Assembly (NCBI GenBank): GCA_030426505.1
Contig: JAUHYN010000001.1
Span: 1 to 39,626, forward strand
Length of the DNA stretch: 39,626 nucleotides
Source of the DNA: a bacterium
GTDB lineage: Bacteria; Myxococcota; Kuafuiibacteriia; Kuafuiibacteriales; Kuafuiibacteriaceae
Reading direction: 5' to 3'
Numbering within the stretch: the stretch's first letter is position 1; each line of letters begins with the position of its first letter. The position numbers and the translations under genes are program-made. Of the stretch, positions 2,232 to 25,227 are shown piece by piece. Under the pieces are notes generated by a model that was not told the origin of the DNA, did not search any database, and saw only the letters and a list, made by a program, of their open reading frames with translations.

Positions 2232-2289
2232 GTCGTTACGATCATCGCACGTCCTGTGCTGCGATGCTCGTTCGAGCGTGCTAGCGTGA

Positions 2290-11187: not shown

Positions 11188-12252
11188 TCAGTTCGGCGGG
11201 CGCGTGTCGTCGTAGATCCGGCGGAGCAGCTCGAGGCCCGGGCGCAGCTCACCGTCCGCGATGCGATGCACCGTGCGCTGGAGGATGTTGTTCACCGGGA
11301 CCGCGATCCCGTGCCGGTCCGCGCGCGAGACCACTTCACCGTTGAGGTAGTCGACGGCGGGGCGACGGCCGCGCTCGATCGCCGCGAGCATCGACGAGCG
11401 GAGCCGACGGTAGCGCGCGCCGACCGCGAGGAGCAGCGCGTGCTTCTTCACGAGTGAAGCGGAGCCGCTCGACGTCTTCTCTTGCTCGGTGAGCGCGAGC
11501 TTCTCGAGGTTGAGCGTCCCGGCGACCTTCTCGAGGCGGACCTCTTCTGCGCGCGCGACCTCGACCGTCTCGGTCATGACCTCCAGCGCGAGGCGCCGCA
11601 CGAAGCGGTGCGCGAGGAGGTTACCGAGGCGATCGCCGCCGACCGTCCCGAGCGTGGAGATCGCGCAGTTGATCGCGAGCTTGCTCCAACGCGCGCCGCG
11701 CAGGTTCTCCGTGATCTGCACGGGCCCGATGCACTCGAGCAGCGTGGAGAGCTCGTCGCAACGCTCTTCGGCGACGCCATCGAGGCACCCGAGCGTGAAG
11801 CCACCGGACGACGTGCGCTGGTAGCGACCAGGGCCGACCATCGACGCGCCCCAGGCGATGATGCCGCCGACCACGCGCTCGCGACCGACGAGCTGCGCGA
11901 CGCGCTCTTCGCAGAGGCCGTTCTGGAAGCACACCATCACGCCGTCCTCGGCGAGCGCGGCCATCGCGGTGCGCGCGGCGACTTCGACCTGCGGCGGTTG
12001 CGTGGCGAGGAGGATGTATTGGTAGCCGGGCCCGTCGATCGGCGGCTCGGCGTACGCGGTGCCGGGGATGATGCGGGTCTCGCCGTCGCCGCCGACCCAG
12101 AAGCCGCTGCGCTCGATGGAGTCGCGGATCGCCTGGTTCGTGCTGACCGGTGTGACGGTGCAGCCTTGTTCGATCAAGTGCGCAGCGACGATCCCACCGA
12201 TGCCGCCGAGCCCCATCACGAGGACGCGGGGGGACTGGTCGTCCGTGATCAT
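11188..12252 (-). CDS. ketopantoate reductase (PanE/ApbA) family NAD(P)-dependent oxidoreductase
   Basis: The track ORF is trimmed to ATG 12252, which overlaps the upstream stop as ATGA. It has a Rossmann motif (VLVMGLGGIGG), WSKLAINC, and the C-terminal SSMLAAIERGRRPAVDYLNGEVV block typical of the family. The position that I recall as the TE(I/V)D Glu seems to read AVD, so true ketopantoate specificity is doubtful. Confidence 0.8.
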   Translation of the reverse strand: MITDDQSPRVLVMGLGGIGGIVAAHLIEQGCTVTPVSTNQAIRDSIERSGFWVGGDGETRIIPGTAYAEPPIDGPGYQYILLATQPPQVEVAARTAMAALAEDGVMVCFQNGLCEERVAQLVGRERVVGGIIAWGASMVGPGRYQRTSSGGFTLGCLDGVAEERCDELSTLLECIGPVQITENLRGARWSKLAINCAISTLGTVGGDRLGNLLAHRFVRRLALEVMTETVEVARAEEVRLEKVAGTLNLEKLALTEQEKTSSGSASLVKKHALLLAVGARYRRLRSSMLAAIERGRRPAVDYLNGEVVSRADRHGIAVPVNNILQRTVHRIADGELRPGLELLRRIYDDTRPPN

Positions 12253-12602
12253 CCGAGCGGCGCTCCGACTTCGAACACCAAGTGCGGCGCGGGGCGGAAG
12301 TAGAAGATGCGCCAACCCCACTCGGTGTCTTCGGGGCGATCGTCCACGCGCAACTTCGACGCGAGGAGCTGACCGTAGATGCGATCGACCTCTTGCGGCG
12401 TCGCGACCTGGAGCGTCACGAGGACGTCGTTCTCACCGAGGTCGCCCGCCGGCGGGTGGTGCGCGACGGTGGAGTGGCCCATGTGGAAGGACAACAAACT
12501 CCCGTTGTCGATCTCCACTTGGCCGGAGACGATCTGACAGAATCTCTTCAGTGGATCGCCGTTCGTGTTGAACAGGCAGACCTGTGCGAGGTGGGCGGGC
12601 AT
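12249..12602 (-). CDS. small VOC (glyoxalase/bleomycin-resistance-like) family protein
   Basis: The track ORF is trimmed to ATG 12602 (MPAHLAQVCLFNTNGDP...). The size (117 aa) and beta-alpha-beta pattern fit the family, and GC3 is high. It is the first gene of a three-gene minus-strand operon. The family call is weak. Confidence 0.5.
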   Translation of the reverse strand: MPAHLAQVCLFNTNGDPLKRFCQIVSGQVEIDNGSLLSFHMGHSTVAHHPPAGDLGENDVLVTLQVATPQEVDRIYGQLLASKLRVDDRPEDTEWGWRIFYFRPAPHLVFEVGAPLG

Positions 12603-12915
12603 CGGCGTTCGCAGATACCTCCGATCGCAGCGTCCGGCTACCGGTCCGTCGGCCGGCCACGGCACACGGATTCAGTACCGAAATGTACGGGCGCTTCCGA
12701 CGCGTCGGTAGGTCAGGGATGGTTCGACAAAACGGTGGCTTGGCGGAAACCGTCTGAAAAGTCGGTGGGTTGTGCGGCCCCGCACGTTCCAAATGGCCGT
12801 TGACGGGCTGATCGGCGGGGGGCATATCAGCGGCGCCTTGACCACTGAATCGTCATTCATTTCCGACCCGTGCGCCGGGAATGCAGACCTCACGATGGAT
12901 ACGAAGGAGTACGGC
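12603..12915. promoter_or_regulatory. 313-bp divergent intergenic control region between the VOC-reductase-EEP operon and the FAAL-PKS operon
   Basis: This is the longest non-coding gap in the window and is visibly less GC-rich. An AAGGAG ribosome-binding site (12904-12909) lies 6 nt before ATG 12916. It also contains the palindrome CCGACGCGTCGG (12697-12708), GTAC-N6-GTAC (12675-12688) and a hairpin GTGCGG-CC-CCGCAC (12772-12785). No promoter can be assigned with confidence. Confidence 0.4.
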
Positions 12916-14727
12916 ATGACGCAGACGCTCGTCGACGGGCTCGCGGCCGCCGCGGCTATCGACCACAAAGGCTACACGTTCCTCGACGACCGCCTCGAGG
13001 GCGAGGAGTGGTCGTTCGCGCGGATCAGCGCGGAGGCCGACCGCCGCGCGCGTTACTTCCGTTCGCTCGGTCTCGAGAAAGGCGATCGCCTCGCGATGAT
13101 CGTCCCGGACGGTGAGGACTTCGTGCTCTCGTTCTTCGGCGCGGTGCGCGCCGGGATCGTTCCGGTCCCGATGTACCCGCCGCTCGCGCTCGGCAAGCTC
13201 GACAGCTACATCGACACGGCCGCGCGCATCCTCGGCACCGCCTCCGCGAAGATGCTGCTCACCACGAAGCAGGTCTCGCCGATCCTCTGGTCGCTGCTCT
13301 CGCGCGTCGAGACGCTCGAAGAGATCGTGCTGACCGAGAAGGTCCGCGACCACGACGACAGCACCATCACCGCGACGCTCGACGACATCGTCATCGAGCC
13401 GAGCGACGCGTGCTTCCTGCAGTTCACGTCCGGCTCCACGTCGGATCCGAAGGGCGTCATCGTCTCGCACGAGAACCTCGTCGCGAACGCGAACGCCATC
13501 ATGTACGACGGGCTCGACTGCGATCCGGAGACGGACCGCGGCGTGAGCTGGCTGCCGCTCTACCACGACATGGGGCTCATCGGCTTCGTGATCTCCCCGC
13601 TCATCGCGCACGTCCCGGTGGTGTTCATACCCACGCTGTCGTTCGTGAAGCGGCCGCCGGTGTGGCTCGACGTCGTCAACGAGTACCGCGGCACGATCAC
13701 CTTCGCGCCGAACTTCGCGTTCGGCCTCGCGACGAAGCGCGCCACGCCTCAGAAGCTCGCGCAGCTCGACTTGTCCTGCATCCGTGTCCTCGGGTGTGGC
13801 GCCGAGCCGATCAACCCGACCACGATGCGCGCGTTCGTCGACAAGTTCGCGACGGCCGGCTTCTCGCCCAACGCCTTGATGCCTTGCTACGGGATGGCGG
13901 AGGCGACGCTCGCGATGTCGTTCGATCGCCTCGATCGTCCGATGAACACGCTGACGATCGACCGCGACGCGTACGAGGGCGACAAGGTCGCCAAGGAAGC
14001 GGCCGAGGGCCTCGAGCTCGTCGGCTGTGGCGCGACGTTCCCGAACCACGACGTGGCGATCATGGGCGCGAAGGGCGAGCTGCTCGAAGACGGCCAGGTC
14101 GGCGAGATCGTGTTCCGCGGACCGAGCGTCACGCGCGGCTACTTCGAGAACGCCGACGCCACGAAGGATCTCCTCGCGGGCGGCTGGCTGCACACGGGTG
14201 ACCTCGGGTTCAAGAAGAACGGCACGCTGTACATCTCGGGGCGCCAGAAGGACCTCGTGATCCTCAACGGCCGCAACTACTACCCGCAGTCGATCGAGTG
14301 GGAGGTCGAGCAGATCGACGGGATCCGCAAGGGCAACGTCGTCGCGTTCTCGACCCCGGGCGACAGCTCGGAAGAGCTGGTCGTCGTCGCGGAGACGAAG
14401 GTCGCGGAGAAGGACCTCCTCGAGGCCGCGGTGAAGCGCCGTGTCCACGACGCGTTCGGCATCCGGCCGCGCGAGATCGTCCTGGTGGGCCCCGGAGGTC
14501 TGCCGAAGACGTCGAGCGGCAAGCTGCAGCGCCGAAAGACGAAGCAACTGTTCGAAGAAGGCACGCTCGGTACGGAGAACCGGTTGATGGGTTCGACGGC
14601 GACGCGGGTCGCTCTCGCGCGTCACCTGACGCGCTCCGCGTTCGCGCGGTTCACTCACAACATCAAGAAGACGGCGCGTCCGGCGAAGAAGCTCGTCGAC
14701 GTCGTGCGTCGCGCCGAAAGCAGGTAA
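12916..14727 (+). CDS. fatty acyl-AMP ligase (FAAL, FadD32-like)
   Basis: The start is chosen at ATG 12916 behind AAGGAG. FAAL-type blocks present: GDRLAMIVPDGEDFVLSFFGAVRAGIVPVPMYPP, FLQFTSGSTSDPKGVIVSHENLVAN (13426-13455 covers TSGSTSDPKG), WLHTGDLGF and LPKTSSGKLQR. Confidence 0.9.
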   Translation: MTQTLVDGLAAAAAIDHKGYTFLDDRLEGEEWSFARISAEADRRARYFRSLGLEKGDRLAMIVPDGEDFVLSFFGAVRAGIVPVPMYPPLALGKLDSYIDTAARILGTASAKMLLTTKQVSPILWSLLSRVETLEEIVLTEKVRDHDDSTITATLDDIVIEPSDACFLQFTSGSTSDPKGVIVSHENLVANANAIMYDGLDCDPETDRGVSWLPLYHDMGLIGFVISPLIAHVPVVFIPTLSFVKRPPVWLDVVNEYRGTITFAPNFAFGLATKRATPQKLAQLDLSCIRVLGCGAEPINPTTMRAFVDKFATAGFSPNALMPCYGMAEATLAMSFDRLDRPMNTLTIDRDAYEGDKVAKEAAEGLELVGCGATFPNHDVAIMGAKGELLEDGQVGEIVFRGPSVTRGYFENADATKDLLAGGWLHTGDLGFKKNGTLYISGRQKDLVILNGRNYYPQSIEWEVEQIDGIRKGNVVAFSTPGDSSEELVVVAETKVAEKDLLEAAVKRRVHDAFGIRPREIVLVGPGGLPKTSSGKLQRRKTKQLFEEGTLGTENRLMGSTATRVALARHLTRSAFARFTHNIKKTARPAKKLVDVVRRAESR

Positions 14728-14732
14728 CCACG

Positions 14733-15584
14733 ATGGGCTCCACAAAAGACGAAGTCCAAGTCAGCTACGACGTCTCCAACGAGTTCTTCCGCCTCTGGCT
14801 GGATGAGCGGATGAACTACACGTGCGGTGTCTTCGAGGGGACGGACAACCTCGAAGAGGCGCAGGTGAAGAAGCTGAACGTCATCCACGACTTCGCGAAG
14901 ATCACCCCCGAGAAGCGCGTGCTCGACATCGGCTGCGGCTGGGGCGCGAACATCGAGTTCCTCGCGATGGACAAGGGCGTGAAGGACGTCAACGGCGTGA
15001 CGCTCTCCTCGGCGCAGTTCGAAGAGATCCAGCGCCGCAACGTCCCCGGTGTGACCGCGGAGTGCGTGAACTTCTTCGACTACGAGCCGAAGGAGAAGTT
15101 CGACGCGCTGACGTCGATCTGCATGATCGAGCACGTCGCGTCGCCGGAGGAGGCCCGCAACGGCCGCGCGGTCGATCTCTACCGCCGCTACTTCAAGCGC
15201 GCGCACGAGCTCACGAACCCGGGCGCGTACTTCGGGCTCCAGACGATCCTCCGCAACTTCGTCCCGCGCACGAAGAAGGACATCCAGGACATCGGCTGGG
15301 TCACGTACAAGATCTTCCCCGGCGGCATCACCCCGCGCATGGAAGACATCGTGATGGGCGTGAACCCGTACTGGGAGGTCGTCGAGGTCAAGACGCGCCG
15401 CGAGGACTACGGCAAGACCTGCTGGCACTGGCGTGACCGCCTCCGCAAGAACGAGACGCTGATCCGCGAGAAGTGGGGCAACGAGGTCTTCGACGACTAC
15501 GACCGTTACCTGTCCACGTGCGTCACCGCGTTCGACAAGCACTACCAGTCGCTCGCGCAGTGGTCGCTCCGCCGCATCGACTGA
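14733..15584 (+). CDS. cyclopropane-fatty-acyl / mycolic-acid-type SAM-dependent methyltransferase (CMAS family)
   Basis: ATG 14733 lies 5 nt after the FAAL stop. Family motifs present: SYDVSNEFFRLWLDERMNYTCGVF and the SAM motif I VLDIGCGWG (14919-14945). The 283-aa length matches mycolate methyltransferases. Confidence 0.9.
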   Translation: MGSTKDEVQVSYDVSNEFFRLWLDERMNYTCGVFEGTDNLEEAQVKKLNVIHDFAKITPEKRVLDIGCGWGANIEFLAMDKGVKDVNGVTLSSAQFEEIQRRNVPGVTAECVNFFDYEPKEKFDALTSICMIEHVASPEEARNGRAVDLYRRYFKRAHELTNPGAYFGLQTILRNFVPRTKKDIQDIGWVTYKIFPGGITPRMEDIVMGVNPYWEVVEVKTRREDYGKTCWHWRDRLRKNETLIREKWGNEVFDDYDRYLSTCVTAFDKHYQSLAQWSLRRID

Positions 15585-15625
15585 TCTCGATCTCTGAGTA
15601 CAAGGACCAAGAAGGAATTATCGAA

Positions 15626-15865
15626 ATGAACGATCAACAAATCATCGCCCTGTTCCAAGAGGCCGTCGCGGAAGTCGACGGCAACGTGAAGCTCGGCGAG
15701 ATGACGGCGGCCACCGAGCTCTCCTCGCTCGGCCTCGACTCGGTGATGACGATGGAAGTCATCGGCGTCATGGAAGAGAAGCTCAACGTTCGCTTCCCCG
15801 ACGAGGACCTCGCGACGCTCAAGAACATGGGCGATCTCACCAAGCTGATCCACCGCCTCAGCTGA
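15626..15865 (+). CDS. discrete acyl carrier protein
   Basis: ATG 15626 follows a GAAGGAA ribosome-binding site. The protein is 79 aa with the phosphopantetheine motif LGLDSV (Ser codon 15740-15742). Confidence 0.9.
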   Translation: MNDQQIIALFQEAVAEVDGNVKLGEMTAATELSSLGLDSVMTMEVIGVMEEKLNVRFPDEDLATLKNMGDLTKLIHRLS

Positions 15866-15879
15866 GTCAGGAACCGACC

Positions 15880-16686
15880 GTGGCCAAGAACCGAGCCTTT
15901 CGCGAGGCGATCTATCGCGAGTACATGGAGTTCTTCGAGCGAGCGGAGAGAAACCGCCGCTGGAGCGTCTTCACGGACATCCCGTGGGACCAGCTCGCCG
16001 AAGAGAACAACGACGAAGAAGCCGCGTTGAACGCGGAGACGTTCGTCGGCGTGGAGTCGTATCTCCCCGACTACGTGTCGCAGGGGATCAACGTCGTCCG
16101 CGAGATGTTCGGTCAGGCCTGGTTCTCCGCGAACTGGGGCTACGAGGAGTCGAAGCACGCGCTCGCGCTGCGCGAGTACCTCGTACGCTCCGGGCAGCGG
16201 ACGTCGGAGCAGATGTTCGACTACGAGGAAGAGATCCTCGGCAAGAAGTGGACGCTGCCCTTCGAGACCGCGCGGCAGATGACCTTCTACGGCGCCGTCC
16301 AGGAGCTCGCGACCTTCATGATGTACAAACATCAGGAGAAGCTCGCGCGCGATCGCGGCGACGAGGTGCTCGCCACGATCTACGGCTACGTGGGTCGCGA
16401 CGAGGCGGCGCACGCCGACTTCTACCGGAAGGTCACCCAGCTCGAGATCGTCGAGGACCGCGAAGGCGCGATCCGTGACATGGCGCTGGTCTTCAAGAAC
16501 TTCCGGATGCCCGGCACGCTCCTCGTCCCCGACTACGACGCGCGCACCGAGGTGATGCGCAAGACAGGCGGCGTGGACCGCGGCGTCTTCTTCAAGGAGG
16601 TGTGGTTCCCCACCCTCAAGAAGGTCGGCGTCACCCGCGAGGAGATCACGCGCGCCAGCGCCGAGCTCCGCAAGTCCGCCGCCTGA
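15880..16686 (+). CDS. soluble di-iron acyl-ACP desaturase family protein
   Basis: There are two EXXH motifs: EESKH (16147-16158) and DEAAH (16402-16413). Single Glu ligands sit at the expected spacing (NAETF about 37 residues before the first motif, QELATF 33 residues before the second). The start is GTG at 15880. Confidence 0.85.
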   Translation: MAKNRAFREAIYREYMEFFERAERNRRWSVFTDIPWDQLAEENNDEEAALNAETFVGVESYLPDYVSQGINVVREMFGQAWFSANWGYEESKHALALREYLVRSGQRTSEQMFDYEEEILGKKWTLPFETARQMTFYGAVQELATFMMYKHQEKLARDRGDEVLATIYGYVGRDEAAHADFYRKVTQLEIVEDREGAIRDMALVFKNFRMPGTLLVPDYDARTEVMRKTGGVDRGVFFKEVWFPTLKKVGVTREEITRASAELRKSAA

Positions 16687-16699
16687 GTTCTCCCCTCCC

Positions 16700-16716
16700 C
16701 CTTTCGCCCCGAAAGG
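16700..16716 (+). other. small hairpin CCTTTCG-CCC-CGAAAGG in the desaturase-PKS spacer
   Basis: A 7-bp perfect stem with a 3-nt loop lies 11 nt upstream of the PKS ATG. There is no U-tract, so it is not an intrinsic terminator. The function is unknown. Confidence 0.25.
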
Positions 16717-16727
16717 CGCTTCGAAAA

Positions 16728-19700
16728 ATGACCATGACCTCAGACCCCATCGCGATCGTCGGCATCGGTTGCCGCTTCCCTCGGGCCAAGGACGCCGACC
16801 AGTTCTGGAGCCTCATCGCGCGCGGCGAGACCACGTTCTCACGCGTGCCGGCGGACCGGTGGAATCACGAGGCGTTCTACTCGAAGAGCCAGCGCGACAT
16901 CGACAAGGCGTGGGTCGACGCCGGGTCGTTCCTCGAGGAGTACCGGGAGTTCGCCGCGATGCACTACGGCATCGCGCCGCGGCGCCTTGAAGTCATGGAC
17001 CCGCAGCAGCGCCTCCTCATCGAGATGACGCGCTCCGCGATTCAAGACGCGGGCTACGAGCTCAAGGGGTTCGAACGCAAGAACACCGGCGTGTACGTCG
17101 GCGTCTCCATCAGTGAGTTCCAGAGCATCATCCAGGCGCGCATGGGCGCCATGCGCATGATCAGCGGTGAGTTCGGCGGCGCGGCCGGGAACCAAGAACT
17201 CATCGACGCCATCCTCGCCCTCTCCGCCAACATCGCGCCGATCCGCGCCTTCACGCTCAGCGGTAATCTCACCGCGCTCGCCGCCGCAGCCGTCGCGCAG
17301 GTCCACGACCTGGGCGGACCGGCCTACACACTCGACTCCGCGTGCGCCTCGGCGTCGCTCGCCGTCCACGACGCGGTCACGCAGCTGCGCGCGCGGCAGG
17401 TCGACGCCGCCGTCGCGGGCGGCGCGTACGTGAACCTCGCGCCCGACAACCTCGTCGCCTTCACGAAGATCGGCGCCATCAGCTCGACCGGCGCGTGCCG
17501 CCCGTTCGAAGCGCGCGCGGACGGCTTCGTCCAGAGCGACGCGGTCGGCCTCGTGTTCCTCAAGCGCCTCGAAGACGCGCTCTCGGACGGCGACCGGGTC
17601 CACGCCGTGATCCTCGGGTCCGGCGCCAACAACGACGGCCGCGGCGAAGGCCCGATGACGCCGAAGGTCGACGGCCAGCTCGACGCGCTGAAGCGCGCGT
17701 ACGCCGATGCAAACGTCTCGCCCGCGTCCGTCTCCTTCTTCGAGGCGCACGGCACCGCGACCACGATCGGCGACCCCGTCGAAGTCGAAGCGCTCTCCAC
17801 CCTCCTCGCCGCGCACGGCGTCGAGCAGGCGGACGCCCCGTGGCTCGGTTCGGTGAAGGGCAACATCGGCCACGCGATGTCCGCCGCCGGCATCGCCGGG
17901 CTGATCAAGGCGATCAAGGTCGTCGAGCACCGCACCGCGCCGCCGCAGCCGAACTTCGAGGCGCCCAACCCGGGCCTCGCGTTCGAGACGCGCCCGATCC
18001 GCGTCAGTGACCGCACCACCAAGCTCGAAGCTCGCCCCGATCGCTTGCGCGTGGGCGTGAGCTCGTTCGGCTTCGGCGGGACGAACTCTCACCTCGTCCT
18101 CGAAGAGGCGCCGGCCGCCGAGCGCCGCGTCGCCGTCGCCGTCCCACTCGCGACCGTCGCAGAAGAAGTCCTCCCGGAGGCCGTCCTCGTCACCGGCGCC
18201 ACGCGCGAGCTCCTCGACGCGCACCTCGGCGCGCTCGCCGACTGGCTCGAGGGCGATGGCGCCGAGTCCTCGCTCGCCGACGTCGCGTACACGCTCAACG
18301 CGCGCCGCACCCGCGAGCGCTTCCGCGCTGTCATCGGCGCGCGCTCCGGCGCGGAGCTGATCGAAAACCTCCGCCGCGCGGCGAAGGGCGAGGTGTCCAA
18401 GGACGTCGCCTTCTTCGACGTCGGCCTCGCCGACGACGCGCCGCAGAAGATCGCCTTCCTGTTCCCCGGCCAGGGCGCGCAGAAGGTCGGCCTGCTCGGC
18501 GCGCTCCGCGCGCGCTTCGCGTCGTTCGGCGCGACGTTCGACGCACTCTCCGCGGGCGCGAACCAACACCTCGACCGCCCCCTCGCGGACTACCTGTTCG
18601 CCGAAGACGCGACCGAGGACGCCCTCACCGCGACCGAGGTCTGCCAACCCGCGATGGCCGCGCTCGGCCTCACGCTCGACCGCCTCCTCGCCGATGCCGG
18701 TGTGCGCCCCGACGTCACGCTCGGCCACAGCCTCGGTGAGTTCGCCGCGCTCGCCGCGGGCGGCGCGATCGATCCGGCCGCCGCCGTCGAGCTCGTCGCG
18801 AAGCGCGGCGCCGCGATGCGCGCGCTCGACCTCGAGGACACCGGCACCATGGCCGCCGTGATGACCGACGCCGACACCGCGCGCGAGATCGTGCGGGACG
18901 TCGAGGGCGTCGTCGTCGCGAACGTGAACCACCCGCGCCAGACCTCGATCTCCGGCACCACCGCGGGCGTGAAGGCCGCGCTCGAGGCGTTCGCCGCGCG
19001 CGGCGTCGACGCGAAGCCGCTGTCCGTCTCGCACGCCTTCCACTCGCCGCTCCTCGACGGCGTCGACACCGCTGTGCGCGGGCTCCTCGACGACGTCGCG
19101 CTGAACGCGCCCTCCACCGTCGTCGCCTCGTGCATCGCCGCCGAACCGCACGGCGGCCCCGACGCGATCCGCGAAGTGCTCGTCGCGCATGCGACCGCGC
19201 CCGTGGAGTTCGTGCGCGGCCTCGAGCAGGCCCGCGACGCCGGCGCGACGGTGTTCGTGCAGGTCGGCGCCGGCGCGATGCTCACCAGCTTCGCCCGCGC
19301 GACGCTCGGCGGTGCGCACACGCTCGTCACGCTCTCCACGAGCGACGACGACGGCGGGTACGAGTTCCTCCGCGGAGTCGCGACGCTCGCCGCGCTCGCC
19401 GCGCCCGTCGACTTCGAACCGCTCTACGCCGGCGAAGGCCGCCGCGTGGTCTCGCTCCCCGAGACGCCGATCGAGCGGCAGTCGTACTGGCCCGTGAAGG
19501 ACCAGCCGCAGCCCATCGCCGAGATGACGCCGCTCGCGCGCGAAGGCGTGCGTTCGGTCGCGCTCGCCGCGGCCGCGAACGTCGACACCGAGCGCGCCGT
19601 GCCGCAGTCGCTCGTCGAGTTGTTCGCGCAACAGAACCGCCTCCTGCAGCAGCAGGCGGAGGTGATGGCGCAGCAGAACCGCTTGCTCCTCGGCGGGGAC

Positions 19701-22700
19701 GCCGCCGGGTTCGACGCGGTCGCGATCGCGCCCGCGCCGACGGCGCTCCCCACGCCCGCGCCGATCGCCGAGCGCGTGGCCGCGACGATCGCGGAGCCCG
19801 AGCCCGCTGCGCCGGCACCCTCTCCCGAACCCGTCGCCGCCGAAGTACCCGCGGACGACGACGTGCGCGAACAGGTCTTCGGGATCGTCGCGAAGATCTC
19901 CGCGTTCCCGCGCGACAGCCTCCGCGGCGAGCAGCGCCTCGTCGACGAGCTCGGCTTCGACTCGCTGATGGTCGCCGACCTCGGCGGCGCGCTCGAGAAC
20001 TCGTACCCGAACCTCGGCGGCCTCCCGCCCGAGCTGTTCAACCTGAAGACCACGCTCCTCGACGTCGCGAACCACGTCGTGAAGACGGTGACCAACGCGC
20101 CCGCGACGCTGGCCGCCGCGGCCGAAGAGATCGAGGAGGCGCCGAAGGTCCCCGCCACCGCGTACCGCGTGAAGGCGGTCGTCCGCTCGCGCCCGGAGCT
20201 CGGCTTCGCGGACGTCACCGGTCAGACGTGGCTCGTCACCGAAGACGACACCGAAGCGAGCGCGGCGATCAGCGCCGAGTTGTTGAAGCGCGGCGCGACG
20301 GTCCTACGGGTGCGCTTCGCGCGCGACGGCGTCGCGGCGACCGCGCGCCTCGTGAAGAACGCGCTGAACCTCTGGCCGCAGTCGTTCGTCGACGGGCTGC
20401 CGGAGGCGATCGCGAACGTCGGCGTCACGCTCGACGGCTTCGTCCACGCGGCGTCCCTCGGGCTCGGCGACGCGTCCGACTTCGACAACCCGGTCGTCGT
20501 CCTGCACCCGCTCGTCGCGCAACTCGACGTGAAGCGCCTAGCGGTCGTCACCGGCCTCGGCGGTCGGCTCGGCCTCGAGCGCAGCCCGCGTCTCGCGCGC
20601 AACATCCTGCAGAGCGCGCTCCACGGGTACACGAAGTCCATCGCGCGCGAGCGCCCGGACACAATCGTCCGCGCCCTCGACGTCGACGACACGCTCCCCG
20701 CGGCGCAGATCTGCCGCTGGGTCGTGGACGAGCTCCTCGGCGCCGACCGCACGACCGCCGTCGGCTTCGACGGCGAACGTCACGTCGCCGAACTCGTCGC
20801 GGCGCCGGTCGGGCTCCCCGCGAAGCGCAAGATCGACAAGGACGACGTCGTCGTCATCACCGGTGGCGCCGGGGAGATCGGTTCGGTCGTCGCGCGCTGG
20901 GTCGCCGCGCAGAAGCCGAAGGCGCTCCTGCTCGTGGGCCGCCGCGCCCAGGATGACCGCATCTCGAAGCTGCTCGCGGAGCTCGGCGACAAGGCGATCT
21001 ACGTCGCCGCCGACGCCGCCTCGACCGAGGCCCTCCGCGCCGCCACCAAACCGCACCTCGAAGCGTTCGGGCCAGTGACCGTCGCGTTCCACGCGGCCGG
21101 CGTGATCGACGACGCCCCCGCCACGAAGAAGTCGGTGGCCAGCGTCGAGCGCGTGATGAACGCGAAGGTGAAGGGGATGCAAGCTCTCTTGCAGACCTTC
21201 CCGACCCTCCGCGACCTCGTGCTGTTCTCGTCGTGGGCCGGCCACTTCGGCAACGCGAGCCAGTCCGACTACGCCGCCGCGAACGAGCTGCTCGATCGCA
21301 TCGCGATCGCCGGCGTCGGCGCGACGCGCGTGCTCTCGCTGGCGTGGCCGCCGTGGAGCTCCACCGCGATGGTCGCGAGCATCCCGAAGGCGCTGCAGAA
21401 GGCGATGGCCTCGCAGGGCGTGACGTTCCTCGACGACGACGAGGGCCTCGAGCGCCTCGAGCGCGCGTTCGCGGAAGGAGCGCAGGGCCTCGTGCTCGTC
21501 GGCCGCGACCTCCCCGTCCGCGACACCGCGGTGCGCGCCGAGGTCGACTTCGCGACCGCCACGCACCCGTACCTCCTCGATCACAAGCTCAACGGGCGAC
21601 CCGTGGTCCCGCTCGCGTCGGCGACCGACCTCATCGCGTGGTCCTTCTCCGAGGCCGCGAGCACCGCCGGCTCGATGGTGGTGACGGACCTCGACTTGGT
21701 GCGCGGCGTGTTCGGCGACGACACGGTTCAGGCCACGCTCACCGGGCGCCGCACCGGCGAGACCGAGGAGGCGCGCGTCGAGCTCGCCGTCGGTGACTCC
21801 ACCGCGTACCGCGCGAGGGTCGCGACCGAACGCCTCCAGGATCCGCCCGAGCTCATCACGCTCACGGGCACCGTCGAGACGCCGCAGACCACGCTCGATC
21901 GCTTCTACGAGGCGCAGACCTTCCACGGCCCGATGCTCCGCGGCATCGAGTCGATCGAGCGGATGACCACGAACGGCATCAAGGGGATCGTGCGCACGTC
22001 GAAGATCGGCGAGTGGATCCTCGGGACGGAGCGCACCGGCTGGACGATCGATCCGCTGGTGGTCGACGGCAGCTTCCAGCTCGCCGGCTACTGGCTCTTC
22101 GCGCACCACGGCCGCGCCGGGTTCCCGATCGGCTTCGACCGCTTCGTGCTCGTGCGCCCATTCGGCGACCAGCCGATCCACTGCACGATCGAGCTCGACG
22201 CGATCGGCGACGACACGTTCGCCGGGCGCATCGTCTACACGAACAGCTCCGGCCAACTCTTCGGGTGGGTCGACGGGATCCGCGGACGCTTCGCGGAGCT
22301 CGCGCCGCAGACCAAGAAGAACGGCCACGAGACCGTCGTGGACGACGTCGCGCGCGAGGCGTGGGACATCGGCTCGTTCCCGGAGGTCGAGCTCCTCGAG
22401 CAGCGCTTCGAGATGGCGCGCCTCATCGGGCTCGACAACCCGTACTTCGCGATGCACGCGGGGACGGCGAAGGACACGAGCGTCATCGACGGCGTCGAGA
22501 TGCTCAACTACTCGAGCTACAACTACCTCGGCTTCTCCGGTCACCCGGAGGTCGTCGCCGCCGCGCAGGAGGCGATCGAACGGTACGGAACGTCCGTGTC
22601 GGCGAGCCGCGTCGCGTCGGGCGAGCGCCCGCTCCACCGCGACCTCGAGACGAAGATCGCGGACCACGTCGGCGTCGACGACTCGATCGTGTACGTGAGC

Positions 22701-23597
22701 GGACACGCGACGAACGTCACGACGATCGGGCACATGTTCGATCGCAACGACCTCATCGTCCACGACTCGCTGATCCACGACAGCATCCTCCAGGGCATCT
22801 ACCTGTCGGGTGCCACGCGTCGCCCGTATCAGCACGGCGACCTCGACGCCCTCGAGCGCACGCTGTCGCAGGTCAGGAAGAACTACCGCCGCGTGCTGGT
22901 GTGCGCGGAGGGGATCTATTCGATGGACGGCGACATCTGCGATCTGCCGCGGCTCATCGACATCAAGAAGCGCTACAAGGCCCTCCTCCTGATCGACGAA
23001 GCGCACTCGATCGGGGTCCTCGGCCACCAGGGTCGCGGGATCGCGCATCACTTCGACGGCCTCGACCCGCGCGACGTCGATCTGTGGATGGGCACGCTGT
23101 CGAAGTCGTTCGCGAGCTGCGGTGGCTACATCGCCGGCAGCGAGAAGTTGGTGCGGTACCTGAAGTACACCGCGCCGGGCTTCGTGTACTCGGCGGGTAT
23201 CACGCCGCCGAACGCCGCAGCGGCGCTCAAGTCACTCGAGCTCATGCAGAGCCACCCGGAGGTCGTCGAGCGACTCCGCGCCCGCTCGCGGTTCTTCCTC
23301 GACTACGCCAATCAGCGCGGCCTCGACACCGGGCTCGCGATGGGTGCGGCCGTGGTGCCCGCGATCATCGGCAACTCGATGGACTGCATGAAGGTGAGCC
23401 AGGCGCTCAAGAAGCGCTGCATCAACGTGCAACCGATCGTGTACCCGGCCGTCGAGGACGACGCGGCGCGCCTGCGCTTCTTCATCAGCGCGCTGCACTC
23501 CGAGGAGCAGCTTCGGCACACCGTCGATGTGTTGGTGGAGGAGCTGGCGAAGGTCCGTGCGGAGAGTGGCACGGACCAGCCGAGTGCTTCGGCGTAA
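16728..23597 (+). CDS. PfaA-like type I polyketide synthase fused to an alpha-oxoamine synthase: KS-AT-ACP-KR-DH-AONS (2289 aa)
   Basis: The track ORF is trimmed to ATG 16728 (MTMTSDPIAIVGIGCRFP). Approximate domain spans: KS 16743-18110 (Cys 17343-17345; EAHGTATTIGD; KGNIGH); AT 18447-19332 (GHSLGE Ser 18729-18731; HAFH 19032-19043); ACP 19863-20097 (GFDS Ser 19962-19964); KR 20169-21522 (GGAGEIG; YAAAN Tyr 21270-21272); DH 21534-22302 (HKLNGRPVVP His 21582-21584; DGSFQ); AONS 22374-23594 (YNYLGF, IDEAHS, GTLSKSF Lys 23103-23105). Confidence 0.95.
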   Translation: MTMTSDPIAIVGIGCRFPRAKDADQFWSLIARGETTFSRVPADRWNHEAFYSKSQRDIDKAWVDAGSFLEEYREFAAMHYGIAPRRLEVMDPQQRLLIEMTRSAIQDAGYELKGFERKNTGVYVGVSISEFQSIIQARMGAMRMISGEFGGAAGNQELIDAILALSANIAPIRAFTLSGNLTALAAAAVAQVHDLGGPAYTLDSACASASLAVHDAVTQLRARQVDAAVAGGAYVNLAPDNLVAFTKIGAISSTGACRPFEARADGFVQSDAVGLVFLKRLEDALSDGDRVHAVILGSGANNDGRGEGPMTPKVDGQLDALKRAYADANVSPASVSFFEAHGTATTIGDPVEVEALSTLLAAHGVEQADAPWLGSVKGNIGHAMSAAGIAGLIKAIKVVEHRTAPPQPNFEAPNPGLAFETRPIRVSDRTTKLEARPDRLRVGVSSFGFGGTNSHLVLEEAPAAERRVAVAVPLATVAEEVLPEAVLVTGATRELLDAHLGALADWLEGDGAESSLADVAYTLNARRTRERFRAVIGARSGAELIENLRRAAKGEVSKDVAFFDVGLADDAPQKIAFLFPGQGAQKVGLLGALRARFASFGATFDALSAGANQHLDRPLADYLFAEDATEDALTATEVCQPAMAALGLTLDRLLADAGVRPDVTLGHSLGEFAALAAGGAIDPAAAVELVAKRGAAMRALDLEDTGTMAAVMTDADTAREIVRDVEGVVVANVNHPRQTSISGTTAGVKAALEAFAARGVDAKPLSVSHAFHSPLLDGVDTAVRGLLDDVALNAPSTVVASCIAAEPHGGPDAIREVLVAHATAPVEFVRGLEQARDAGATVFVQVGAGAMLTSFARATLGGAHTLVTLSTSDDDGGYEFLRGVATLAALAAPVDFEPLYAGEGRRVVSLPETPIERQSYWPVKDQPQPIAEMTPLAREGVRSVALAAAANVDTERAVPQSLVELFAQQNRLLQQQAEVMAQQNRLLLGGDAAGFDAVAIAPAPTALPTPAPIAERVAATIAEPEPAAPAPSPEPVAAEVPADDDVREQVFGIVAKISAFPRDSLRGEQRLVDELGFDSLMVADLGGALENSYPNLGGLPPELFNLKTTLLDVANHVVKTVTNAPATLAAAAEEIEEAPKVPATAYRVKAVVRSRPELGFADVTGQTWLVTEDDTEASAAISAELLKRGATVLRVRFARDGVAATARLVKNALNLWPQSFVDGLPEAIANVGVTLDGFVHAASLGLGDASDFDNPVVVLHPLVAQLDVKRLAVVTGLGGRLGLERSPRLARNILQSALHGYTKSIARERPDTIVRALDVDDTLPAAQICRWVVDELLGADRTTAVGFDGERHVAELVAAPVGLPAKRKIDKDDVVVITGGAGEIGSVVARWVAAQKPKALLLVGRRAQDDRISKLLAELGDKAIYVAADAASTEALRAATKPHLEAFGPVTVAFHAAGVIDDAPATKKSVASVERVMNAKVKGMQALLQTFPTLRDLVLFSSWAGHFGNASQSDYAAANELLDRIAIAGVGATRVLSLAWPPWSSTAMVASIPKALQKAMASQGVTFLDDDEGLERLERAFAEGAQGLVLVGRDLPVRDTAVRAEVDFATATHPYLLDHKLNGRPVVPLASATDLIAWSFSEAASTAGSMVVTDLDLVRGVFGDDTVQATLTGRRTGETEEARVELAVGDSTAYRARVATERLQDPPELITLTGTVETPQTTLDRFYEAQTFHGPMLRGIESIERMTTNGIKGIVRTSKIGEWILGTERTGWTIDPLVVDGSFQLAGYWLFAHHGRAGFPIGFDRFVLVRPFGDQPIHCTIELDAIGDDTFAGRIVYTNSSGQLFGWVDGIRGRFAELAPQTKKNGHETVVDDVAREAWDIGSFPEVELLEQRFEMARLIGLDNPYFAMHAGTAKDTSVIDGVEMLNYSSYNYLGFSGHPEVVAAAQEAIERYGTSVSASRVASGERPLHRDLETKIADHVGVDDSIVYVSGHATNVTTIGHMFDRNDLIVHDSLIHDSILQGIYLSGATRRPYQHGDLDALERTLSQVRKNYRRVLVCAEGIYSMDGDICDLPRLIDIKKRYKALLLIDEAHSIGVLGHQGRGIAHHFDGLDPRDVDLWMGTLSKSFASCGGYIAGSEKLVRYLKYTAPGFVYSAGITPPNAAAALKSLELMQSHPEVVERLRARSRFFLDYANQRGLDTGLAMGAAVVPAIIGNSMDCMKVSQALKKRCINVQPIVYPAVEDDAARLRFFISALHSEEQLRHTVDVLVEELAKVRAESGTDQPSASA

Positions 23598-23602
23598 CCG
23601 GA

Positions 23603-23857
23603 TCAGACGCCGGGGATCGTGTGGTAGATGCGAACCTCGAGCGGCTGGGTGAACGTCACTTCTTCGACGTCCAGTGCGCCGGTCGCCATCGGCGCGTCTT
23701 CGATCTGATTCACGATGACGTAGGTGTCGTCGAACTCGAGGTGTTCGACGGAGGCCGCGTGTGACGTGGCGGCGGCGGGGGCGCTCGTGATCGCGAATCC
23801 GATCGCGAGCAGCGCGGGGGCGGAGAGGATAGCGAGGGCACGAATCATCTTCTTCAT
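23603..23857 (-). CDS. small secreted acidic protein (84 aa) of unknown function
   Basis: The track ORF is trimmed to ATG 23857, with an AAGGAGA ribosome-binding site on the minus strand at 23867-23873. The signal peptide is MKKMIRALAILSAPALLAIGFAITSAPAAA. Its stop lies 5 nt from the convergent PKS stop. Confidence 0.6.
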   Translation of the reverse strand: MKKMIRALAILSAPALLAIGFAITSAPAAATSHAASVEHLEFDDTYVIVNQIEDAPMATGALDVEEVTFTQPLEVRIYHTIPGV

Positions 23858-24054
23858 AGTGTCCCGTCTCCTTCGCATTCGCCGTGCCAGCGCGAGCGCG
23901 CGACGCGGCTCACGCGCCCCGACGAGGATCCGCGGACTTGCGCGACAGCGCTGAGGATCCGACGCGAGAAAGCGACAACGAAAATTCACCGCCGTCGTCG
24001 CGGCACCACGGTTCCGCGAGAGCGACCGCCGTCTGTTAGGCTGAGCGCGGACGC

Positions 24055-25179
24055 ATGTTCGTGACGCTCGTCGCAGCGCACCTGGCCGCCGCCTCGGCGC
24101 CGGGCCTACCGACCAACCGCACCTGGGATCGCCTGGACGGGTCGCGGGACGCCCGCGCCCGCTTCGTCCAGGTGGCGGCGGAGCTCGGCGAACAGACGAT
24201 CGTCCTGGACGGCGTTCAGTGGGACGCCGACCGATTCGCGAAGCTCGCCCGCGCCCACCCCGACGAGCCGTTCGTGCGGGTCGTGCGGGAGGCGATTCGT
24301 CGGCCGCTCGATCTCGAGGACTTCCTCTACTTCGTCGACGACGTGATGGTGGCCACGGCGACGAAGACGCGCTCCATCTGGTTGCCCGCGAGTCGCGCGC
24401 GGCGCGCTGGGATTTACGTCCACCCCGACGACGTCTTCGAAGGCGGCTCGCCGCGTCGCTACGGGGAGAAGGGCGACGCATTGGAGACGGACCGCCCGCG
24501 GCGGATCCGTCGCGTGGGGCGCGCCAAGGACGGCGAGCCGCTCGGGCCGCGGTGGTGCCGGCGGTTCCCGAACCCATCGGGGCGGCGCGCGAAGCTGGCG
24601 GCGCTGCGTCGGCTCAACCCCTCGAAGACGTTCCACCGCCGCGTGTGGAGCCTGATGCGGCAGCTGAAGCGCCAAGGCGCGTCGGTGCTGCTCTACTCGA
24701 CCGTCCGGGATCGGCGACGCGGGTACCTGATCTGGGGCGCATACTCGATGAGCCGGAAGACGACGGAGGCCGAGGTCGACGCGCACGTCGCGCTCCTCGA
24801 TTCGCTCCGCACCGAGTGGGACCTCGACGTCCCGATCCGGTGGCGACACCCCGACGGCTGGGAAGCGACGGTCGAAGCCGCGCGTCTGATGGCGGACGCG
24901 TACCACGTCGCGTTCGCGACGCGCTCCGGTGCGGAGTCGTCGAACCACTACGACGGCGTGGCGGTGGACCTGAACGTGTTCGGGCTGCCGCGATCGCTCA
25001 CGCTGACCGCACCCGACGGCGCGAAGCGGACGTTCGATCTCTCGGGCGCGGACGAGCCCCGGGATCTCAGCCTGACCCCGAGGCTCATCGAGTGGATCGA
25101 GGAACACTTCGGGATGTCGAAGCTGCGCGAGGACTACCCACACTGGGAGGACGCGCTGTCGCTCGCGAAGGAGGAGTGA
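24055..25179 (+). CDS. protein with C-terminal LAS/peptidase-M15-like (VanY / hedgehog-fold) metallopeptidase motifs
   Basis: It has SSNHYDGVAVDL (the S-x-H-x2-G-x-A-x-D type zinc motif) and a distal His in EDYPHWED. The N-terminal ~200 residues are very basic (RRIRRVGRAK, RRAKLAALRR) and I could not recognise them. Confidence 0.65.
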   Translation: MFVTLVAAHLAAASAPGLPTNRTWDRLDGSRDARARFVQVAAELGEQTIVLDGVQWDADRFAKLARAHPDEPFVRVVREAIRRPLDLEDFLYFVDDVMVATATKTRSIWLPASRARRAGIYVHPDDVFEGGSPRRYGEKGDALETDRPRRIRRVGRAKDGEPLGPRWCRRFPNPSGRRAKLAALRRLNPSKTFHRRVWSLMRQLKRQGASVLLYSTVRDRRRGYLIWGAYSMSRKTTEAEVDAHVALLDSLRTEWDLDVPIRWRHPDGWEATVEAARLMADAYHVAFATRSGAESSNHYDGVAVDLNVFGLPRSLTLTAPDGAKRTFDLSGADEPRDLSLTPRLIEWIEEHFGMSKLREDYPHWEDALSLAKEE

Positions 25180-25227
25180 GCGCAGGGCCGCCTTTTCCGG
25201 CCTCCGGGTCCGCGCTACAAACGCGGC

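Follow-up and report, generated by a model that had tools for sequence, protein, structure and literature searches.

A five-gene FAAL, ACP and PKS-AONS operon of Myxococcota as a candidate thiotemplated route to tailored long-chain amino lipids

The five-gene operon and its products

The stretch of DNA analysed here (the window) comprises 39,626 nucleotides from a bacterium of the Myxococcota family Kuafuiibacteriaceae (contig JAUHYN010000001.1, positions 1 to 39,626) and has a G+C content of approximately 69%. Five genes lie in series on its plus strand, encoding a FAAL (fatty acyl-AMP ligase), a cyclopropane mycolic acid synthase (CMAS)-type methyltransferase of the S-adenosylmethionine (SAM) class, a stand-alone acyl carrier protein (ACP), a homologue of the soluble di-iron desaturases and a polyketide synthase (PKS) that ends in an alpha-oxoamine synthase (AONS) domain. 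With gene starts set from the listing of open reading frames (ORFs) and by inspection of start codons, gene calling reproduced the order of the five genes, the gaps of 5, 41, 14 and 41 nt between them and the 313-bp divergent intergenic region ahead of them, all of which had been described in an earlier reading made from the letters alone (the sequence-only reading). All five products clear the curated Pfam cut-offs for the families to which they were assigned. The arrangement is not due to chance, as the same order recurs in independent genomes, and we are inclined on balance, if only moderately, to view the five genes as a single operon for a thiotemplated route to a tailored long-chain amino lipid.

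The largest product is the PKS-AONS megasynthase (16728-23597, 2289 amino acids), which matches the KS, KS-C, AT, PP-binding, KR, PKS_DH_N, PS-DH and Aminotran_1_2 families of Pfam. Its ketosynthase (KS) domain (16728-18311, residues 1-528; PF00109, PF02801 and PF16197) contains Cys206, His341 and His382 and the motifs DSACAS, HGTAT and GNIGH, and is followed by an acyltransferase (AT) domain (18456-19310; PF00698, 1e-37) with GHSLG and HAFH, and by an internal ACP (19872-20078) with Ser1078 in LGFDSL, which scores 23.6 bits against PF00550 (cut-off 20.8) when scanned alone. The ketoreductase (KR) domain (20850-21359; PF08659, 4.8e-34) carries GGAGEIG and an IDD within HAAGVIDD, and the dehydratase (DH) domain (21495-22283) carries His1619 and Asp1780, the motifs HxxxGxxxxP and DGSFQ, and matches to PKS_DH_N (32 bits) and PS-DH (28.4 bits) that both exceed their cut-offs. 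The chain ends in a serine palmitoyltransferase (SPT)-like AONS domain dependent on pyridoxal phosphate (PLP) (22497-23534; PF00155, 5.6e-45), with Lys2126 in TLSKS. The order is thus KS-AT-ACP-KR-DH-AONS, with the internal ACP ahead of KR and DH, and all catalytic motifs are intact, which confirms the architecture proposed from the letters.

A Pfam and motif scan of the 2289 residues revealed no enoylreductase (ER), thioesterase (TE), thioester reductase, adenylation or loading domain, in accord with the sequence-only reading, which had recorded that TE and ER were missing. Since a loading domain is lacking, the KS must be primed in trans, and since KR and DH are not accompanied by an ER, the chain is predicted to leave as a 2-enoyl thioester, which would place a 4-ene in the product, a consequence that the sequence-only reading had not stated. 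AT domains of the HAFH type are read as malonyl-specific, and the LDD-type KR motif is read as B-type; B-type enzymes feed DH domains that give E-olefins. An ACP ahead of KR and DH is the order found in PfaA-type synthases; the PfaA model of NCBIfam (TIGR02813) is the second-best match to the KS-AT part, with 570 bits against a cut-off of 1010. Precomputed PF01370 matches in homologues had raised the prospect of a short-chain dehydrogenase/reductase (SDR) fused to the PKS-AONS protein, which was rejected as these matches overlap the KR domain.

When compared with solved structures the AONS domain has its nearest relatives among the serine palmitoyltransferases, and CqsA is distant. The best match is the SPT of Sphingobacterium multivorum (SmSPT; 246 bits, 36% identity), followed by plant LCB2a (219 bits, 37% identity), Escherichia coli KBL (216 bits, 32% identity), human SPTLC2 (211 bits), cysteate acyltransferase (175 bits), ALAS (167 bits), E. 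coli BioF (155 bits, 28.5% identity) and Sphingomonas SPT (154 bits), with CqsA a remote relative at 80 bits. In a small neighbour-joining (NJ) tree the AONS family occupies a clade of its own; a clustering inside BioF or KBL, with housekeeping context in relatives, had been named in the sequence-only reading as grounds for doubt. The PLP-binding set (H2017, S2065, D2090, H2093, T2123, S2125, K2126 and the Arg-containing motif ARLRF), which corresponds to His138, Ser185, Asp210, His213, Thr241, Ser243, Lys244 and the C-terminal Arg of SmSPT, is retained in 50 of 50 family members. On the substrate side the motifs SYNYLGF, S-A-S-R and T-L-S-K (T-x-S-K) resemble those of LCB2/SPT and not those of KBL/BioF; the Ser-Arg and Ser-Lys motifs are as in SPT, at positions where KBL/BioF carry Val or Gly. 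These SPT-like motifs hint, indirectly, that L-serine and a long-chain acyl thioester may be the substrates of a condensation to a 3-keto long-chain base. The SPT loop PAVP/PATP appears as PAVE at 23433-23444 (PKS residues ~2236-2239); PAVE is also present in the inspected members from Acidobacteriota and Planctomycetota, and the inspected cyanobacterial member (L053) keeps the second Pro.

The first gene of the series (12916-14727; 603 amino acids, with an ATG six bases after AAGGAG) encodes a protein that matches the Pfam AMP-binding family (2e-65) and contains TSGSTSDPKG, which is encoded at 13426-13455 as previously read. Its best NCBIfam model is the 'fatty acyl-AMP ligase' PRK09192, and FAAL models score 523, 331 and 316 bits compared with at most 224 for CoA-ligase models such as PRK06187; PRK07768, a CoA ligase by name, scores 418 bits, and every one of these NCBIfam scores is under the equivalog cut-off. 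The nearest solved structures are bona fide FAALs, namely E. coli FAAL (3pbk, 351 bits), the FAAL domains 7r7e-g, FadD32 and a Legionella FAAL, so that the identity first given to the protein was upheld and it appears closest to FAALs and not to the acyl-CoA ligase families. It is the presumed loader of a fatty acid onto the stand-alone ACP (15626-15865, 79 amino acids; PF00550, PP-binding, 3.6e-11), in which Ser39 lies in LGLDS and is encoded at 15740-15742, again as read from the letters.

Between the genes for these two partners lies that of the methyltransferase (14733-15584, 283 amino acids), which scores 192 bits against PF02353 (1.9e-56; cut-off 27) and contains the SAM-binding motif VLDIGCGWG, correctly located at 14919-14945. 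Its matches in the Protein Data Bank (PDB) are cyclopropane fatty acid (CFA) synthases, UmaA and CmaA2. As it aligns solely to the C-terminal catalytic domain of the phospholipid CFA synthases (5z9o residues ~108-373), their N-terminal domain is absent, and its length is that of the mycolic-acid methyltransferases. Such a short form lacking the N-terminal domain is typical of the methyltransferases that act on carrier-bound mycolates. The assignment to the CMAS type is supported by the Pfam match and the SAM motif. The bicarbonate-site residues of E. coli CFA synthase we take to be C139, E239, H266, I268 and Y317. The Cys, Glu, Ile and Tyr of this site align, while His266 (in LLHTI) is replaced by Gln in GLQTIL, a substitution that is also present in the homologues read from three related loci (L004, L021 and L029). 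With Gln at this position the outcome may be a cyclopropane, a methylene or a methyl group, and the type of product may differ from that of canonical cyclopropanation.

The fourth gene (15880-16686) encodes the 268-residue desaturase homologue (FA_desaturase_2, PF03405, 9e-20). An alignment of 34 homologues shows no variation at its six di-iron ligands, E59, E90, H93, E142, E175 and H178. The motifs EESKH and DEAAH noted in the sequence-only reading are both present, although the ranges given for them (16147-16158 and 16402-16413) cover just their ExxH cores, ESKH and EAAH; both single Glu ligands were confirmed, in VES at 16051 and in QEL at 16300. An AlphaFold2 (AF2) model built from an alignment of homologues has a pLDDT of 90, and in Foldseek it is matched best by acyl-ACP desaturases from ivy, castor and Thunbergia (TM 0.76-0.82), with Mycobacterium tuberculosis DesA2 next. 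The protein has an acyl-ACP-desaturase fold and a six-ligand di-iron site in a four-helix bundle, and the earlier identification was upheld on these grounds. The match to PF03405 is not full-length, covering profile positions 96-237 of ~325; more than 2000 homologues of 260-290 residues place the protein in a common short bacterial form. A CylC-type dimetal halogenase was considered for this gene and found unsupported, as Pfam, ligands and fold all indicate an acyl-ACP desaturase.

The composition profile shows a stretch of lower G+C that raised the prospect of a foreign origin for the CMAS, ACP and desaturase genes. This was rejected because the G+C content at third codon positions of all five genes (0.875-0.95) is like that of the flanking genes of the host.

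Related loci and flanking genes

An AONS-domain scan of one genome per species of the Genome Taxonomy Database (GTDB) returned at least 586 relatives, and 80 loci were kept for mapping of the proteins of the window. A core of FAAL, ACP and SPT-like AONS recurs in these species genomes (at least 586), which belong to the Acidobacteriota, Planctomycetota, Cyanobacteriota and Myxococcota. FAAL and ACP genes accompany AONS in most of the 80 mapped loci, and the FAAL gene adjoins the AONS gene in most of the related loci. In Myxococcota metagenome-assembled genomes (MAGs) the AONS domain is fused behind KS-AT-ACP-KR-DH and the stand-alone ACP is kept beside the FAAL. The co-occurrence mapping, with the same gene order in independent genomes, supports a functional unit, as the sequence-only reading had supposed.

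The full five-gene set is found in the window and in at least three other genomes (L002, L003 and L082). Other loci combine FAAL, ACP and PKS-AONS with the methyltransferase only (L004, L018, L021 and L029, with an SDR gene inserted in the last three), with the desaturase only (L001, L019, L020 and L084) or with neither (L006, L011, L015, L035, L048, L056, L065, L069 and L077). The methyltransferase and desaturase genes are therefore optional modules and not fixed parts of the cluster. In the closest relative, L001, which is colinear with the window and 86-89% identical at the nucleotide level (94% in the AONS domain), the methyltransferase region 14724-15625 (902 bp) is exchanged for 13 bp in a clean indel. 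A search with the DH-AONS segment against 1.84 billion cluster representatives gave ~40 matches that span DH and AONS in a single stretch among the best 150 (clusters at 50% identity), most of them 2000-2400 residues in length. Every PKS-AONS member looked up stems from a Myxococcota MAG or a metagenome, no cultured organism is among the sources, and the proteins bear generic names such as 'aminotransferase class I/II' or 'BioF'.

In the Acidobacteriota the ACP is fused to AONS in proteins of ~510 residues, and genes for an HpnA/OleD-like SDR and a 400-residue protein with a weak GNAT match are adjacent. For example L005, L007-L010 and L012-L014 comprise FAAL, fused ACP-AONS, SDR and GNAT-like protein, and in the Planctomycetota L041 and L052 comprise FAAL, fused ACP-AONS and GNAT-like protein only. 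The SDR (PF01370; HpnA/OleD-like) adjoins the core in 16 related loci, and a search of the PDB with the GNAT-like protein of Acidobacteriota found no relatives. This set of FAAL, ACP-AONS, SDR and GNAT resembles Spt, CerR and CerS, the families of CerS and CerR being taken in part from PMC11324152, and sphingolipid synthesis in Acidobacteriota and Planctomycetota may use the cassette. Elsewhere in the Planctomycetota and Cyanobacteriota the same core stands in other contexts, and some cyanobacteria encode KS-AT-KR-AONS. Five cyanobacterial FAAL-ACP-AONS loci (L053, L055, L060, L063 and L068, from Lyngbya, Capilliphycus, Arthrospira and Limnoraphis) have a different tailoring set, with genes for a member of the Asp/Asn beta-hydroxylase family, for another FAAL and for a radical-SAM protein that binds B12 (DUF4070).

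A more distant arrangement is found in Streptomyces sp. NPDC059679 (L085, 6079-16787), in which genes for an AMP-ligase, ACP, desaturase, ACP, AONS, adenylating enzyme, O-methyltransferase, acyl-CoA dehydrogenase (ACAD)-like protein and MMPL protein follow one another. The AMP-ligase is 40% identical to the FAAL of the window, the desaturase 59% and the stand-alone AONS 34%. This order indicates that the logic of a desaturase between carriers, ahead of AONS, crosses phyla.

Upstream of the operon lies the divergent intergenic region (12603-12915, 313 bp), in which two elements are conserved in an alignment of the window, L001, L082, L084 and L015: the perfect palindrome CGACGCGTCG(GT) at 12698-12709 and, on the plus strand, the promoter-like TTGACG-17 nt-CATATC at 12800-12828. 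These are likely candidates for the operator and promoter of the operon. A generic sigma-70 and terminator scan gave no promoter and no convincing terminator; as it missed this element, the promoter reading is drawn from conservation. A scan with Rfam gave no family.

The divergent operon on the minus strand begins with a gene for a 117-residue protein (12249-12602) that stands beside the cluster in L001, L015, L003, L082 and L084; it has no Pfam or NCBIfam match, and its single-sequence AF2 model (pLDDT 49) is not usable. The stop codon of this gene is overlapped (ATGA) by the start of an ApbA/PanE-family NAD(P)H oxidoreductase gene (11188-12252, minus strand; PF02558 and PF08546; TIGR00745 156 bits, cut-off 141), which is retained divergently upstream in the window, L001, L015, L082 and L084. 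From its family and position this oxidoreductase is a candidate 3-ketoreductase. The third gene (10246-11184, minus strand) encodes an Exo_endo_phos phosphoesterase of the superfamily that includes sphingomyelinases C, and its position is taken by a GpsA-like gene in L084. Further upstream an alpha/beta hydrolase gene and a pssA-like CDP-alcohol phosphatidyltransferase gene (1065-3180) are syntenic with L082 (1-741) and L084 (1-1536). The latter product scores 141 bits against TIGR00473 (cut-off 107), and this syntenic pair provides the locus with a membrane-lipid neighbourhood.

Downstream, a 374-residue ORF with no family match (24055-25179) lies between the PKS and ACAD genes; it is present in L001 (72% identical) and absent from L082/L083, where the ACAD gene directly follows the PKS gene. 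The ACAD (25228-26376, plus strand) resembles PigA (437 bits, under the NCBIfam cut-off of 500) and RedW (429 bits), which are prolyl-carrier-protein dehydrogenases. Its gene is followed on the same strand by one for a stand-alone amino-acid adenylation domain (26361-27842; TIGR01733 337, cut-off 317), which appears to overlap the end of the ACAD gene by a few bases (4 in L082), its start in the window being approximate. The ACAD/adenylation pair directly follows the PKS in L082/L083, is present in L001 and is absent from L084 and the more distant loci; no peptidyl carrier protein (PCP) was found near the pair (23500-30500). It is possible that the pair is a clade-specific extension of the pathway, its membership being uncertain. 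Kinship of these two genes to those of the Streptomyces locus was considered and rejected, as the identity is only 24-27%. An asparagine-synthase homologue (28519-30354) has as its best model the amidotransferase of the XrtA/PEP-CTERM system (586 bits, cut-off 817), and the adenylation domain gives a weak match to the model of an exosortase-A-associated ligase. A separate surface-polymer locus may include this downstream block.

Proposed pathway and rival explanations

In the pathway that we propose, a free fatty acid would be adenylated by the FAAL and loaded onto the 79-residue ACP, on which the soluble di-iron desaturase would introduce a cis double bond. The CMAS-type methyltransferase would then alkylate a double bond with SAM to give a cyclopropane, a methylene or a methyl branch. 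The KS would accept the acyl chain for one malonyl extension (C2) on the internal ACP, and the B-type KR and the DH would turn the beta-keto intermediate into an (E)-2-enoyl thioester. The SPT-like AONS would release the chain through a decarboxylative Claisen condensation, in which the amino acid is most likely L-serine, to give a 2-amino-3-oxo-4-ene lipid, and reduction at C3 by the divergent ApbA-type reductase (by the SDR in other clades) would yield a sphingosine-type (4-ene) base. The 4-ene would thus arise from PKS chemistry and would require no sphingolipid delta-4 desaturase. We infer from the sequences all of the substrates, the order of desaturation and methylation, the amino acid, the role of the reductase and the fate of the base; the most likely product is a 2-amino-3-oxo-4-ene lipid with mid-chain unsaturation, a cyclopropyl group or a methyl branch, which would be reduced to a sphingosine-type base.

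A wider scenario, which we advance tentatively as possible and not as probable, is that uncultured Myxococcota make 4E bases without a delta-4 desaturase, with the 4-ene supplied by the KR-DH pair of the PKS and with mid-chain tailoring plugged in on acyl-ACP. Such a route would have arisen convergently with the fungal pathway to 9-methyl-4,8-sphingadienine, as its thiotemplated counterpart, and could supply some of the unusual sphingolipids of the environment. The glycosphingolipids of Sphingomonas are known to include long-chain bases that are monounsaturated or contain cyclopropane, and the fungal pathway, reportedly described by Ternes et al. in 2006, is said to proceed via delta-4 and delta-8 desaturases and a C9-methyltransferase of the CFA-synthase family. 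Given these precedents, it is chemically plausible that a desaturase/CMAS pair should serve a sphingoid pathway.

Several points weigh against the proposed pathway, support for which is wholly in silico. The AONS domain scores under every NCBIfam equivalog cut-off for SPT, BioF and KBL (among the SPT models, 321 against 640 for NF047600, 249 against 500 for NF047599 and 190 against 670 for NF047603), and in the NJ tree, which has four references only and in which SmSPT and KBL group at merely 60% support, it forms a separate clade next to LCB2 and is not nested among known SPTs. Identities of 36-37% to SPTs and 32% to KBL do not fix the amino acid, nor can the sequence of the domain do so, since recognition of serine in the S. 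multivorum enzyme is largely water-mediated (PMC10196870). In the methyltransferase the bicarbonate-site His known from cyclopropane synthases is Gln. The window contains neither an N-acyltransferase (ceramide synthase) gene nor a phosphopantetheinyl transferase gene, an observation already made in the sequence-only reading. To our knowledge ApbA is not a family of 3-ketosphinganine reductases, and no characterised precedent is known to us for an AONS enzyme that condenses an alpha,beta-unsaturated thioester.

The uncertainty over the amino acid leads to a related explanation, which we regard as rather unlikely, in which the assembly line is the same and either the AONS takes glycine or alanine or the product is a specialised metabolite and not a membrane sphingolipid precursor, for example a 1-deoxy- or nor-sphingoid toxin or antimetabolite of the 'sphinganine-analogue' kind, or an amino-ketone or hydroxyketone signal. 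By NCBIfam the domain is about equidistant from bioF (341, cut-off 426), SPT-CFB (321) and KBL (305), all of them under their cut-offs; neither the window nor the Myxococcota loci contain a ceramide synthase-like gene, the accessory genes differ between close relatives as they do in secondary-metabolite clusters, and the PKS-AONS family is confined to some lineages. The Streptomyces analogue is moreover accompanied by an O-methyltransferase and an MMPL exporter, and fungal clusters that combine PKS and AONS yield sphingolipid-inhibiting analogues (PMC7376913, PMC13612406). Against this, the conserved Arg is preceded by Ser, a feature of SPT/LCB2, and not by the beta-branched Val of KBL, and CqsA-type synthases are remote at 80 bits. 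The neighbourhood within the clade is one of lipid metabolism, with the pssA-like phosphatidyltransferase, the alpha/beta hydrolase and, in L084, the GpsA-like gene, and the SDR and GNAT genes of the Acidobacteriota relatives are like ceramide genes. That the AONS is instead a housekeeping BioF or KBL, fused or adjacent by accident, or that the adjacency itself is due to chance, is effectively refuted. The source annotation of AONS homologues as '8-amino-7-oxononanoate synthase', together with the best raw score, given by bioF, would favour it, yet this score lies below the bioF cut-off, identity to E. coli BioF is 28.5%, no biotin or threonine-catabolism genes are nearby, gene order is kept across phyla and, in ~40 clusters (50% identity), a complete PKS module precedes the domain in one covalent fusion.

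The optional nature of the tailoring genes bears on another alternative, in which the desaturase and methyltransferase are merely co-located and serve the general pools of acyl-ACP or phospholipid, with FAAL, ACP and PKS-AONS using an unmodified fatty acid. Many relatives do dispense with one or both genes, and short homologues of acyl-ACP desaturases are very common (more than 2000). We nevertheless judge this to be decidedly improbable, as the tailoring genes lie inside the operon between those for FAAL, ACP and PKS with gaps of 5-41 nt and are inserted at identical positions in independent genomes, the N-terminal domain that phospholipid CFA synthases possess is missing from the methyltransferase, and the Streptomyces desaturase gene is likewise situated between two carrier protein genes beside AONS. 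It is still less likely, in our estimation very much so, that the operon acts with the downstream dehydrogenase and adenylation domain to form a pyrrole (prodiginine-like) lipid through AONS-driven cyclisation in the manner of RedL or PigH. That proposal would account for the PigA and RedW scores of the ACAD, for its amino-acid adenylation neighbour and for the position of the pair directly after the PKS in L082/L083, and RedL and PigH are themselves AONS-terminated (PMC11188435, PMC3870968). However, there is no PCP near the pair, the window yielded no PigC/RedH-type condensing enzyme, PigJ-type KS or O-methyltransferase, neither L084 nor any more distant PKS-AONS locus has the pair, and KR and DH remove the beta-keto group that a RedL-type pyrroline requires.

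If the proposed pathway is true, it would constitute a second bacterial way to sphingoid bases, in which chain length, 4-ene and branching are set on carriers before condensation. It would give a function to a large and generically annotated PKS-AONS family found only in uncultured Myxococcota, tie this family to the far more widespread cassette of FAAL, ACP and AONS in Acidobacteriota, Planctomycetota and Cyanobacteriota, and aid in assigning producers to the diverse sphingolipids of environmental lipidomes (PMC11334938). An AONS that accepts enoyl-ACP, together with the short desaturase/methyltransferase pair, could also serve as biocatalysts for designer long-chain amino alcohols.

Comparison with known systems

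The Caulobacter set, in which AasR, AcpR and Spt are followed by CerR and CerS (PMC9386255, PMC11324152), likewise employs a dedicated adenylating enzyme, a dedicated ACP and an SPT-type PLP-dependent condensation, and the separate NAD(P)H reductase gene beside the cluster in the window is a further likeness. In contrast to Caulobacter, the ligase of the window is of the FAAL type, a KS-AT-ACP-KR-DH module, fused to the AONS, follows loading and precedes condensation, and the AONS itself belongs to a separate clade below the SPT cut-offs. The reductase differs in being of the ApbA type, no ceramide synthase gene is nearby, and the operon includes genes for a desaturase and a methyltransferase.

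The closest characterised analogue, which the sequence-only reading had not named, is RedL (A-ACP-KS-AT-ACP-AONS) from the biosynthesis of undecylprodigiosin, whose KS-AT-ACP-AONS part releases a beta-ketoacyl chain with glycine (PMC11188435). Shared with RedL are a carrier-loaded fatty chain, a single malonyl extension by KS-AT and release from the internal ACP by a C-terminal AONS. RedL-type release by AONS is reportedly the subject of work by Mo et al. in 2008. In RedL the beta-keto group is retained and the product cyclises to a pyrroline, whereas KR and DH are present here, preceded by the ACP, so that the predicted substrate is an enoyl chain and the predicted product an open-chain amino-enone. 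RedL has fused loading (A-ACP), which takes place in trans here, with separate FAAL and ACP, and no other prodiginine genes were found in the window. Other proteins that terminate in AONS are PigH (ACP-ACP-AONS) and SxtA (MT-GNAT-ACP-AONS).

Fungal Fum1/Fum8, sphingofungin and myriocin clusters (PMC7376913, PMC13612406) also join a chain to an amino acid via AONS to give a sphingoid-like base, and the fungal set of modifications (4-ene, mid-chain double bond and a methyl group from the CMAS family) matches what the operon could install. The difference is that in fungi tailoring follows condensation, on ceramide, with membrane desaturases, and that PKS and AONS are separate proteins, whereas tailoring is predicted here to precede condensation, on acyl-ACP, with a soluble desaturase and with the 4-ene derived from KR and DH of the PKS. 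Enzyme families and logic are shared with the tailoring of mycolic acids on AcpM, with its soluble desaturases (DesA1/2), short CMAS methyltransferases (CmaA/MmaA/UmaA), FAAL (FadD32) and terminal condensing PKS (Pks13). Unlike the mycolate system, the operon occurs in a Gram-negative, Myxococcota-type organism and has no mycolate condensation, release is by a PLP enzyme and not by a thioesterase or transfer to trehalose, and the methyltransferase has Gln for the bicarbonate-site His. Polyunsaturated fatty acid synthases of the PfaA type and HglE-type proteins (KS-AT-ACPn-KR-DH) share the position of the ACP ahead of KR and DH; compared with PfaA, the protein described here has a single ACP and a C-terminal AONS, scores under the model cut-off and is encoded in a window with no pfaB/C/D-like genes.

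Proteins of the A-CP-AONS and PKS-AONS kinds have been listed in computational surveys since 2013, when only PigH was characterised (PMC3870968), Spt-like proteins are distributed over ~40 phyla and some are 'parts of longer proteins' (PMC11334938), and a second AOS of 571 residues was noted in ceramide-producing cyanobacteria (PMC8895605). The Nostoc 'SPT' Npun_R3567 is a true BioF and not a member of this family. A literature search of incomplete coverage found no description of KS-AT-ACP-KR-DH-AONS or of its association with FAAL, ACP, desaturase and CMAS. The sequence-only reading had stated that no characterised pathway with this exact gene set was known to it, which agrees with this result, although the set itself is not confined to the window and recurs in other genomes. 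The operon is not categorically new, and extends two known kinds of system, namely the bacterial SPT initiation module and the AONS-terminated PKSs.

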